This document shows, piece by piece, positions 9,325-14,211 of a stretch of DNA of 64,000 nucleotides (positions are counted from its first letter, which is position 1; each line of letters begins with the position of its first letter). Position numbers and translations under genes: made by a program. Where the stretch lies: the NCBI RefSeq assembly GCF_044647545.1, contig NZ_CP172818.1. One strand, 5' to 3'. Source of the DNA: Escherichia coli. GTDB lineage: Bacteria; Pseudomonadota; Gammaproteobacteria; Enterobacterales; Enterobacteriaceae. The notes under the pieces were generated by a model. That model was not told the DNA's origin. It saw only the letters and a program-made list of their open reading frames with translations, and made no database searches.

Positions 9325-10486
<1,162 letters not shown>

Positions 10487-10666
10487 GCCCGACAGAATTA
10501 AATGAGATTGCAGGAAAACGCGGTTAACGGAGTGATCGAGTTAACATTGTTAAGTTAAATATTGGTTTCAACTCTGATTTACATGGTTGCTGTGTTGTTA
10601 AATTGTACAAAGATGTTATAGAAACAAAATGTAACATCTCTATGGACACGCACACGGATAACAACT
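10487..10666 (+). promoter_or_regulatory. cstA promoter and leader (expected CRP and CsrA control region)
   Basis: 180-bp AT-rich non-coding region upstream of cstA; GGA-containing leader near the start codon; exact sites not resolved by eye. Confidence 0.4.
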
Positions 10667-12772
10667 ATGAACAAATCAGGGAAATACCTCGTCTGGACAG
10701 TGCTCTCTGTAATGGGAGCATTTGCTCTGGGATACATTGCTTTAAATCGTGGGGAACAGATCAACGCGCTGTGGATTGTGGTGGCGTCGGTCTGTATCTA
10801 TCTGATCGCTTACCGTTTTTATGGGTTGTATATCGCCAAAAATGTGCTGGCGGTTGACCCGACGCGTATGACGCCAGCGGTGCGCCATAACGACGGGCTG
10901 GACTATGTGCCGACGGACAAGAAAGTGCTGTTCGGTCACCATTTTGCGGCCATTGCCGGAGCTGGCCCGCTGGTGGGGCCGGTACTGGCGGCGCAAATGG
11001 GTTACCTGCCAGGGATGATCTGGCTGCTCGCCGGGGTGGTTCTCGCCGGTGCGGTGCAGGATTTCATGGTGCTGTTTGTTTCTACGCGCCGTGACGGTCG
11101 CTCGCTGGGTGAGCTGGTCAAAGAAGAGATGGGGCCAACCGCCGGGGTGATAGCGCTGGTGGCCTGCTTTATGATCATGGTCATTATCCTTGCCGTGCTG
11201 GCGATGATCGTGGTGAAAGCCCTGACTCATAGCCCGTGGGGAACGTATACCGTTGCGTTCACCATTCCGCTGGCGCTGTTTATGGGGATCTACCTGCGCT
11301 ATTTGCGTCCGGGGCGTATTGGCGAAGTGTCGGTGATTGGTCTGGTGTTCCTGATTTTCGCCATTATCTCTGGCGGCTGGGTGGCAGAAAGCCCGACCTG
11401 GGCACCGTACTTTGACTTTACCGGCGTGCAGCTGACCTGGATGCTGGTGGGCTACGGTTTTGTGGCGGCGGTGCTGCCGGTGTGGTTGCTGCTGGCCCCG
11501 CGCGACTACCTCTCAACCTTCCTGAAAATCGGGACTATCGTCGGTCTGGCGGTAGGCATTCTGATTATGCGCCCGACGCTGACCATGCCTGCGCTAACTA
11601 AATTTGTCGATGGCACTGGCCCGGTATGGACCGGTAACCTGTTCCCGTTCCTGTTTATCACCATCGCCTGTGGCGCGGTGTCTGGCTTCCATGCACTGAT
11701 CTCTTCCGGCACTACACCGAAGATGCTGGCGAACGAAGGGCAGGCGTGCTTTATCGGCTACGGTGGGATGTTGATGGAATCCTTCGTGGCGATTATGGCG
11801 CTGGTTTCCGCCTGTATCATCGATCCGGGTGTGTACTTCGCCATGAACAGCCCGATGGCGGTGCTGGCTCCGGCAGGGACGGCGGATGTGGTTGCTTCTG
11901 CCGCGCAGGTGGTGAGTAGCTGGGGCTTTGCGATTACCCCGGATACGCTAAACCAGATTGCCAGCGAAGTGGGTGAACAGTCGATCATTTCCCGTGCGGG
12001 CGGTGCGCCGACCCTGGCGGTGGGGATGGCCTACATTCTGCACGGTGCGCTGGGCGGCATGATGGATGTGGCGTTCTGGTATCACTTCGCCATTCTGTTT
12101 GAAGCACTGTTTATTCTGACGGCGGTGGATGCAGGTACGCGTGCTGCGCGCTTTATGTTGCAGGATCTGCTGGGCGTGGTGTCTCCGGGCCTGAAACGGA
12201 CCGATTCACTGCCTGCTAACCTGCTGGCAACGGCGCTGTGCGTACTGGCGTGGGGCTACTTCCTCCATCAGGGCGTGGTCGATCCGCTGGGCGGTATTAA
12301 CACTCTGTGGCCGCTGTTTGGTATTGCCAACCAGATGCTGGCAGGGATGGCGCTGATGCTCTGTGCTGTGGTGCTGTTCAAAATGAAACGTCAACGTTAC
12401 GCCTGGGTGGCGCTGGTACCAACGGCCTGGCTGCTGATTTGTACCCTGACCGCAGGCTGGCAGAAAGCGTTTAGCCTGGATGCAAAAGTCGGCTTCCTGG
12501 CGATTGCTAACAAGTTCCAGGCAATGATCGACAGCGGCAATATTCCGTCGCAGTATACCGAGTCACAGCTGGCGCAACTGGTGTTCAACAACCGTCTGGA
12601 TGCCGGGTTAACCATCTTCTTTATGGTGGTCGTGGTGGTTCTGGCACTGTTCTCGATTAAGACGGCACTGGCGGCATTGAAAGAGCCGAAGCCAACGGCG
12701 AAAGAAACGCCGTATGAGCCGATGCCGGAAAATGTCGAGGAGATCGTGGCGCAGGCAAAAGGCGCGCACTAA
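10667..12772 (+). CDS. cstA: Carbon starvation protein A (peptide/pyruvate transporter family)
   Basis: 701 aa polytopic membrane protein. Confidence 0.95.
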   Translation: MNKSGKYLVWTVLSVMGAFALGYIALNRGEQINALWIVVASVCIYLIAYRFYGLYIAKNVLAVDPTRMTPAVRHNDGLDYVPTDKKVLFGHHFAAIAGAGPLVGPVLAAQMGYLPGMIWLLAGVVLAGAVQDFMVLFVSTRRDGRSLGELVKEEMGPTAGVIALVACFMIMVIILAVLAMIVVKALTHSPWGTYTVAFTIPLALFMGIYLRYLRPGRIGEVSVIGLVFLIFAIISGGWVAESPTWAPYFDFTGVQLTWMLVGYGFVAAVLPVWLLLAPRDYLSTFLKIGTIVGLAVGILIMRPTLTMPALTKFVDGTGPVWTGNLFPFLFITIACGAVSGFHALISSGTTPKMLANEGQACFIGYGGMLMESFVAIMALVSACIIDPGVYFAMNSPMAVLAPAGTADVVASAAQVVSSWGFAITPDTLNQIASEVGEQSIISRAGGAPTLAVGMAYILHGALGGMMDVAFWYHFAILFEALFILTAVDAGTRAARFMLQDLLGVVSPGLKRTDSLPANLLATALCVLAWGYFLHQGVVDPLGGINTLWPLFGIANQMLAGMALMLCAVVLFKMKRQRYAWVALVPTAWLLICTLTAGWQKAFSLDAKVGFLAIANKFQAMIDSGNIPSQYTESQLAQLVFNNRLDAGLTIFFMVVVVVLALFSIKTALAALKEPKPTAKETPYEPMPENVEEIVAQAKGAH

Positions 12773-13122: not shown

Positions 13123-14211
13123 TCAGGCTTTAAACGATTCCACTTTTTCGAACGCTGCACGCAACGTATCCGGTGTCAGCGTGACCGGCAGGTAATGAAT
13201 GGATTCCACCGGACGTAAGGTGTGGGCAATCACTTTGTCGATCTCCGCCTGATTATTGATATCCACTTCCAGCTCCGCCAGCGTAGTCGGCAGATGAAAA
13301 CGCTGATACGCTCCAGTTAATTGCGCCAGCACATCATCCTGACCCAGCAAGGCGCTTTGCACCAGAATTCCGTAGGCGACTTTGGTGCCGTGGAGAAACT
13401 TCTCGGTTTGCGGCAGCACGGTCAGACCGTTATGCACGGCATGAGCTGCCGCCACACGCGTAAAACGATCGCCCAGACCACCAACCATCCCACCACCAGC
13501 AATAATGGCATCCACCACATCGCAAAATGATTGCGTTAACTGGTGATTTTGCTGATCGCTCAGCGCCTGTTCGCTACTGTTTAACAAGACGTCGCGAATG
13601 GCCTGCGCATTATTGATCCCCAGTCGCACGGTTAGCGGCAACGTTTCTGGTTGCGGGGCCAGCACCACCGCTTCATACCATTTCGCCAGCGTGTCACCGA
13701 TCCCCGCCAGCAGATATTGTTGCGGCGCGTTGAGGATAATCTCCGGTTCCACCAGCACCATAAAATTGGCGTCGTCGAAAATCTCATAATGCAGCGCCTG
13801 TCCGGCATCGTTATACCAGACAGAGAGCGGTGTCCAGGCGGCGCAGGTAGCGGCGATCGTCGGAACGGCAACAAATGGCAGACCGAGACGGCGGGCGAGG
13901 GCTTTCGCGGTGTCGAGCAGTGCGCCGCCGCCGACGCCAATCACCACGTTGCGATCGTCAGCGGATTCAGCCGCCAGTTGCTGTACATCGCTTTCGCTGC
14001 AATGACCACGAAACAAAATATGCTTTGCCCCTGGCAGTTCAAACGCTGGCGGCAGTTTGGTTTGCGCCGCAGCAATGGCGCGTTCGCCGTAGATCCACAC
14101 CGCGCGAGAAAGCTGTTCATCAGTGAAAAAATCGTGCAGGTGATTGAAACTTCCTGGATGTGAAAAGTAGTTAGCCGGGCCGACGACCACGCGGATAGGA
14201 TTGTGAGGCAT
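13123..14211 (-). CDS. ybdH: Iron-containing alcohol/glycerol dehydrogenase family oxidoreductase
   Basis: 362 aa; dinucleotide-binding motif GVGGGALLDTAKA. Confidence 0.9.
   Translation of the reverse strand: MPHNPIRVVVGPANYFSHPGSFNHLHDFFTDEQLSRAVWIYGERAIAAAQTKLPPAFELPGAKHILFRGHCSESDVQQLAAESADDRNVVIGVGGGALLDTAKALARRLGLPFVAVPTIAATCAAWTPLSVWYNDAGQALHYEIFDDANFMVLVEPEIILNAPQQYLLAGIGDTLAKWYEAVVLAPQPETLPLTVRLGINNAQAIRDVLLNSSEQALSDQQNHQLTQSFCDVVDAIIAGGGMVGGLGDRFTRVAAAHAVHNGLTVLPQTEKFLHGTKVAYGILVQSALLGQDDVLAQLTGAYQRFHLPTTLAELEVDINNQAEIDKVIAHTLRPVESIHYLPVTLTPDTLRAAFEKVESFKA

Follow-up and report, generated by a model that had tools for sequence, protein, structure and literature searches.

The cstA translation-initiation region of Escherichia coli, a known CsrA operator: extent of the leader, conserved GGA sites and overlap with GcvB pairing

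The window, by which we mean the whole 64,000-nucleotide stretch of DNA analysed here, belongs to the E. coli chromosome and carries the gene order entB-entA-entH followed by cstA-ybdD. The open reading frames near cstA translate to EntB, EntA, EntH, a 701-aa membrane protein, YbdD and HcxA. A 601-bp query spanning positions 10300-10900 found a 100% match in several RefSeq E. coli genomes and was present in 5419 of 5426; RefSeq annotates this segment as entH and 'pyruvate/proton symporter CstA', and most E. coli genomes diverge from the window strain by 1-5% over the same query. CstA, formerly described as a 'carbon starvation' peptide transporter, functions as a pyruvate/proton symporter (PMC7730263). 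The entH gene ends at 10486 and the cstA ATG begins at 10667, and the intergenic region is thus exactly 10487-10666, the 180 nt that a preliminary description of this DNA had presented as the cstA leader. In what follows, positions given relative to the start codon count the A of the ATG as +1. The elements of the gene and of the region upstream are:

10667-12772, + strand: cstA coding sequence, 701 aa, with a product that starts MNKSGKYLVW, as in the RefSeq E. coli annotation.
10667-10669, + strand: cstA start codon ATG; both the ATG and the N-terminus MN(K/N)SGKY are conserved.
10628-10666, + strand: cstA 5' untranslated leader, 39 nt, 41% GC and unstructured, delimited by the published mRNA 5' end and by a CsrA CLIP peak that starts at -38.
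10624-10637, + strand: invariant block ACAAAATGTAACAT, spanning -4 to +10 around the cstA transcription start.
10614-10622, + strand: candidate extended -10 element, TGtTATAGA, with TG.T.TAGA conserved.
10595-10600, + strand: candidate -35 hexamer TTGTTA, lying within GTTGTTAA, which is invariant in the cross-genus alignment.
10531-10546, no strand assigned: cAMP-CRP site AGTGATCGAGTTAACA, centred at 10538.5, conserved and with two mismatches to TGTGA-N6-TCACA.
10513-10515 and 10529-10531, + strand: two GGA triplets outside the leader, 97-115 nt before the start of transcription.

Where does the cstA leader begin? In the supplement of a CsrA modelling study (PMC6028588), the modelled cstA mRNA begins with AATGTAAC, is listed as AATGTAACATCTC... 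and has its start codon at position 40, which places its first nucleotide at 10628. The published 139-nt mRNA and the window are identical at 139 of 139 positions. Since the published 5' end corresponds to 10628, the transcribed leader is 39 nt long. The label 'leader' therefore applies to 10628-10666, and the remainder of the 180 nt is promoter DNA. The composition of the region had been called AT-rich, and it is: GC content is 36% in the intergenic region and 41% in the leader proper, compared with 51% in the whole window.

The promoter elements were placed from conservation and from the published 5' end. The candidate -35 hexamer stands 16 nt before the candidate -10 element, which ends 6 nt ahead of 10628, and together they match 8 of 12 consensus positions, a value under the threshold of the promoter scan. 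The promoter and terminator scan of the entH-cstA region returned nothing above thresholds, intrinsic terminators included. The CRP site is centred some 89.5 bp ahead of the transcription start, and its sequence (AGTGATC....TTAACA, 10531-46) is near-invariant across Enterobacteriaceae in the cross-genus upstream alignment. According to PMC7730263, the CRP site of cstA falls within -200 to -120 of the start codon, around 80 nt ahead of the transcription start; the same paper describes activation of the promoter by CRP and repression by Fis. A scan of the whole window with the CRP consensus gave fewer matches than expected by chance, and the pattern alone proves nothing.

Two inverted half-sites, TGTTA at 10614-10618 and TAACA at 10632-10636, flank the -10 element and the transcription start, and we take them to resemble the halves of a DeoR operator. 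Their spacing is 13 rather than 6, and the left arm is not conserved. DeoR has been captured on the cstA promoter, and deletion of deoR was without effect (PMC7730263). A further observation concerns the upstream gene: with no terminator detected in 10487-10627, read-through from the iron-regulated ent genes would give a longer cstA 5' region that carries the GGAs at 10513 and 10529.

That possibility underlies a wider reading of the region, according to which all 180 intergenic nucleotides are leader RNA and the two upstream GGAs are CsrA sites as well. Read-through of the ent operon could indeed include them, as the entH-cstA interval yielded no intrinsic terminator. However, the published 5' end and the start of the CLIP peak both lie downstream, at 10628 and -38; the conserved -35/-10 pair and the CRP site separate these GGAs from the start codon; neither GGA is conserved outside Escherichia in the cross-genus alignment; and the one at 10529 directly adjoins the CRP site. 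We consider this reading extremely improbable, and the GGAs at 10513 and 10529, being upstream of the transcription start and not conserved, were rejected as leader sites.

The block ACAAAATGTAACAT over the transcription start hardly varies among the 58-60 Enterobacteriaceae leaders that were aligned, while the next 20 nt or so vary freely. Its single-base variants (ACAAATTG, ACAAACTG, ACAACTTG and GTAACAG) occur only in Klebsiella and relatives. It contains no GGA, shows no conserved structure and matches no sRNA convincingly. Pairing of Spot 42 with this invariant 5' end was considered and rejected, being no better than with shuffled mRNA (fraction 0.74). The block could be the operator of some further regulator, or it could reflect a constraint on the promoter or on the initial transcript.

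The preliminary description had started from a 16-mer placed directly 5' of the cstA ATG, in which it saw a GGA compatible with translational control of the CsrA type that overlaps the ribosome-binding region. The 16-mer, cacacggataacaact, is found at 10651-10666, immediately before the ATG at 10667, and its GGA at 10656-10658, that is, at -11 to -9; it is the only Shine-Dalgarno-like (SD) element, 7 nt before the ATG. On the + strand, GGA triplets begin at 10513, 10529, 10644 (-23), 10656 (-11), 10680 (+14), 10695 (+29) and 10715 (+49). The following sites and peak are relevant to CsrA:

10629-10715, + strand: in vivo CsrA CLIP-seq peak_65, AUGUAACAUCUC...GUAAUGG (-38 to +49), from the PMC5694010 supplement and identical in sequence to the window.
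10642-10646, + strand: CsrA site 1, AUGGA (GGA at -23), inside the CLIP peak; it also forms the core of the site with which GcvB R3 pairs.
10650-10659, + strand: CsrA site 2, GCACACGGAU (GGA at -11 to -9), overlapping the SD sequence and containing the motif first noticed.
10677-10687, + strand: putative CsrA site 3, CAGGGAAAUAC, codons 4-7 (GGA at +14), inside the CLIP peak.
10693-10697, + strand: putative CsrA site 4, CUGGA (GGA at +29); the published 139-nt mRNA contains no other CTGGA.

CsrA binding to cstA RNA has been published in vitro, with gel shift, footprint and toeprint data. According to PMC7652899, which cites Dubey et al. 2003, the cstA leader carries up to four CsrA sites, one of them over the SD, and toeprinting showed that CsrA, once bound, is a steric obstacle to attachment of the 30S subunit. 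The supplement of the 2017 CLIP-seq study states the position of the SD site as -11 to -9 (PMC5694010), exactly where the quoted GGA falls, and its peak encloses four complete GGAs, at -23, -11, +14 and +29. The type of control that had been proposed is thus the mechanism published for cstA (PMC7652899; PMC5694010). CTGGA also appears as a 'secondary' CsrA site in PMC4066749, which credits it to the cstA paper. We infer that the four published sites are the GGAs at -23, -11, +14 and +29, judging by where the GGAs lie, by the extent of the CLIP peak and by this CTGGA entry. The CLIP-seq study also reports that ribosome footprints on cstA respond to CsrA, and that its translation efficiency, RNA level and stability are unchanged (PMC5694010); a change in footprints without a change in these three quantities indicates that repression in vivo was modest under those conditions. 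Taken together, we are highly confident that 10628-10700, the translation-initiation region of cstA mRNA, acts as a CsrA operator.

How much of this could have been anticipated from one GGA? A GGA at -16 to -5 is found in 33 of 51 neighbouring annotated genes, and therefore the single GGA first quoted is ordinary Shine-Dalgarno content. Because most SD sequences contain GGA, an inference of CsrA control from one such triplet is weak on its own, right as its conclusion was; a GGA standing alone close to the ATG does not diagnose CsrA control. Nor is the triplet enriched in the 180 nt as a whole (four in 10487-10666, 2.8 expected, P 0.28). What is unusual is its clustering in the mRNA. Four GGAs, at -23, -11, +14 and +29, lie within the 72 nt from -39 to +33 (composition shuffle P 0.0018), a number reached in only 5 of the 51 neighbouring genes, and cstA alone has three A-N-GGA motifs. 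The sites of A(N)GGA type are AUGGA at -25, ACGGA at -13 and AGGGA at +12, to which CUGGA at +27 can be added, and the gaps between successive GGAs are 12, 24 and 15 nt. A single CsrA dimer can bridge sites about 10-63 nt apart, a range that reportedly comes from the work of Mercante et al. in 2009.

These counts also bear on the simplest reading of the -11 GGA, namely that it is merely the core of an ordinary SD sequence on which no regulator acts. Both the frequency of such triplets among the neighbouring genes and the lack of enrichment in the 180-nt span are in keeping with it, and the universal conservation of the -11 GGA described below is expected of any SD. Against it, CsrA binding, toeprint and CLIP-seq results have been published on exactly this sequence, the exact 10-mer is common to a proven CsrA site of glgC, and three more GGAs stand within 40 nt. 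As an exclusive account it has already been refuted by the published binding and regulation results. The probability of an SD free of any regulator is, in our judgement, practically negligible; the -11 GGA is an SD as well as a CsrA site, and the two roles are not exclusive.

Several known systems are close to this one. The element is that of the E. coli cstA leader of Dubey et al. (2003, J Bacteriol 185:4450), with the same locus and sequence, and nothing in it differs: an SD site at -11 to -9, four GGA sites and ribosome exclusion. The leader of glgCAP, the founding target of CsrA translational repression, has the exact 10-mer GCACACGGAU in common with cstA. In DNA letters, the 10-mer (GCACACGGAT, 10650-59, including the -11 GGA) occurs once in the window. 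Its setting in the two leaders is different: in glgC it is the upstream CsrA site beside the complementary run GCACACGGATTGTGTGTG, and presumably sits in a hairpin loop, whereas in cstA the 10-mer is itself the SD. Otherwise glgC resembles cstA, with several GGA sites, one of them at the SD, and repression by ribosome occlusion (PMC7652899). Among paralogues of the CstA family, btsT (yjiY) is likewise reported to have CRP as an activator and CsrA as a post-transcriptional repressor, and it differs from cstA in being additionally under the BtsS/BtsR two-component system (PMC7730263).

Unlike glgC, cstA has none of its GGAs in a stable stem-loop. In our folding, the leader with the adjoining start of the coding sequence (10628-10720) was no better than shuffled sequences (z-score -0.42), and stem-loop presentation of the CsrA sites is absent. 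When 22 diverse leaders were folded, conserved structure was limited to an invariant 3-bp AGG/CCU stem around +14, without covariation. A search of Rfam returned no known RNA family, only a meaningless sub-threshold match to a fly lncRNA. The unstructured leader agrees with the literature, in which cstA is listed among the footprinted 'classical' CsrA targets with GGAs that lie outside stem-loops and are bound less tightly, and in which the absence of such structures is linked to lower affinity. An out-of-frame AUG at -24 (10643-10645) overlaps the -23 GGA in Escherichia and opens an 84-codon frame that has no SD. In Salmonella and Citrobacter CUGGA stands there, and this AUG is probably not translated.

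Which of the four GGAs are conserved? A search with a degenerate DNA pattern, designed on a stretch of coding sequence specific to CstA (YRFYG...DPTR), gave 120 loci, and the comparison set drawn from them comprised 67 distinct Enterobacteriaceae 5' coding sequences and 60 distinct -45 to +45 regions, from around 20 genera. The GGAs were distributed as follows:

SD GGA: 60 of 60 leaders, in 53 of them at -11; ACGGA in 41.
+14 GGA: 60 of 60 leaders, inside CAGGGAA(A/G)UA(C/U).
-23 GGA: 18 of 60 leaders, only in Escherichia, Salmonella and Citrobacter.
+29 GGA: 27 of 60 leaders, dependent on a Trp-Thr dipeptide.

Conservation of the -11 GGA would also be expected from the Shine-Dalgarno function alone. 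The +14 site lies within the coding sequence, and its codons can be compared with others of the same gene. Codon 4 is NCA in 67 of 67 sequences despite changes among Ser, Pro and Ala, and codon 5 is GGG in all 67, while at the third position of other conserved Gly codons the entropy is 1.07-1.40 bits. Codon 6 reads AAA in 62 of 67 and codon 7 TAC in 66 of 67, against 0.77-0.79 bits for other Tyr codons, and codons 2-3 and 8-9 on either side vary freely. On these alignments, CAGGGAAAUAC at +11 to +21 is held by synonymous-site constraint. The motif is invariant and hence offers no covariation test, and a constraint other than CsrA could act on +14. In our reading, the GGAs at -11 and +14 form a conserved core of two sites, one on each side of the start codon. 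Pairing of the sRNA RprA was considered as a cause of the +14 conservation, as RprA-cstA RNA chimeras are reported to be common to RIL-seq and TRIC-seq, and was rejected: the best predicted complementarity falls at about 10717-10741 (codons 17-25, approximately +51 to +75; about -19.8 kcal/mol), with a weak whole-region P of 0.10.

Outside Enterobacteriaceae, the leaders of cstA homologues are unrelated and GC-rich. In homologues from Xanthomonadales (Rhodanobacter, Dyella, Stenotrophomonas and relatives) an upstream GGA, in a context like GGAcgacCCTTG, lies around 22-25 nt before a GGAG SD. This layout could be a two-site arrangement for RsmA, or just promoter sequence in GC-rich genomes.

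The cstA leader is also the target of an sRNA, GcvB. According to PMC9299463, GcvB represses a cstA translational fusion, both its R1 and R3 regions are needed, and the cstA change G-22C is compensated by GcvB C162G. The GcvB sequence used as our query had a 100% match in E. coli genomes and carries G156, G160 and C162 as in that study. Two regions of the leader are concerned:

10640-10648 (-27 to -19), + strand: GcvB R3 pairing site CUAUGGACA, which contains the -23 GGA; the pairing was reproduced by duplex prediction.
10643-10667 (-24 to +1), + strand: predicted GcvB R1 pairing region, C/A-rich and including the SD; RNAduplex gave -18.8 kcal/mol with GcvB nt 62-89.

In the RNAduplex prediction, UGUCCAUAG of GcvB R3 pairs with CUAUGGACA through, among others, G-22:C162 and C-20:G160, which sets C162 opposite the middle base of the -23 GGA. 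GcvB pairing would thus cover both the -23 and the -11 GGAs, and CsrA and GcvB address overlapping nucleotides; two post-transcriptional regulators share nucleotides of 10640-10667, the action of each on the cstA leader being already known from separate publications. The pairing of a C/A-rich leader with the GU-rich R1 seed, with validated repression, is shared with other GcvB/Hfq targets, mRNAs of amino-acid and peptide transporters. In contrast to them, cstA needs R1 and R3, and a CsrA GGA motif falls on the R3 site. The neighbour of cstA on the opposite strand, hcxA (ybdH; 13123-14211, - strand), is a GcvB-regulated gene according to the GcvB regulon paper, and the two adjacent transcription units, cstA and hcxA, may share GcvB. 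A predicted pairing of GcvB nt 147-156 with CAGGGAAAU was rejected, since G156C had no effect in the published work (PMC9299463).

Might GcvB, together with Hfq, be the main regulator of this leader, with R3 on CUAUGGACA, R1 over the SD and the GGAs mattering as parts of the duplexes? The repression of the fusion, the requirement for R1 and R3 and the G-22C/C162G compensation, as given in PMC9299463, all agree with this, and duplex prediction reproduces the two R3 base pairs and the R1 duplex over -24 to +1. Yet there is independent proof of CsrA binding, both in vitro and in vivo; the region around -23 that R3 targets is present only in Escherichia, Salmonella and Citrobacter while the -11/+14 pair is universal; and GcvB G156C, expected to disrupt pairing to the CAGGG at +11, was without effect. 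We regard control mainly by GcvB as very improbable. GcvB is essentially certain to be an additional layer on the CsrA-controlled leader, and unlikely to be the sole mechanism.

With these distributions in mind, we tentatively propose a history of the operator, which we hold to be possible, if somewhat short of probable. The ancestral cstA CsrA operator would have been a two-site clamp, composed of the SD GGA at -11 and CAGGGAAAUAC at +14 and kept by selection on the synonymous sites of codons 4-7. The AUGGA or CUGGA at -23 would have been gained later, in Escherichia, Salmonella and Citrobacter, and in E. coli it is also the GcvB R3 site, so that CsrA and GcvB would compete or cooperate there.

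A model of cstA control can be drawn from the published steps and from the arrangement of the sites. Under carbon limitation, cAMP-CRP activates the cstA promoter, opposed by Fis during fast growth, as published. The CsrA sites lie in the 39-nt leader and in the first ten codons. According to the published mechanism, CsrA on the SD (GCACACGGAU) excludes the 30S subunit, and CstA is not made while CsrA is free. CsrA on the SD is probably clamped to the +14 site, a pairing of sites suggested by their arrangement: because the conserved -11/+14 pair brackets the start codon, with its members 24 nt apart, one CsrA dimer could clamp both. The sRNAs CsrB and CsrC sequester CsrA on entry into stationary phase, relieving repression, and such sequestration would relieve that of cstA. 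In rich medium GcvB/Hfq adds to the repression, as published. The layers of CRP, Fis, CsrA and GcvB together restrict CstA synthesis to carbon-limited, nutrient-poor conditions.

CsrA control of the cstA leader is already known in detail, and its description here is no discovery: repression through ribosome exclusion is a textbook case that dates from 2003 and that CLIP-seq confirmed in 2017. What the present analysis does is to separate leader bases from promoter bases at cstA, and to make two modest additions, the conserved -11/+14 GGA pair, constrained at synonymous sites, and the block over the transcription start that scarcely varies. The -11/+14 pair, together with the lineage-specific sites that overlap GcvB pairing, could guide work on how CsrA and an sRNA share one short leader.
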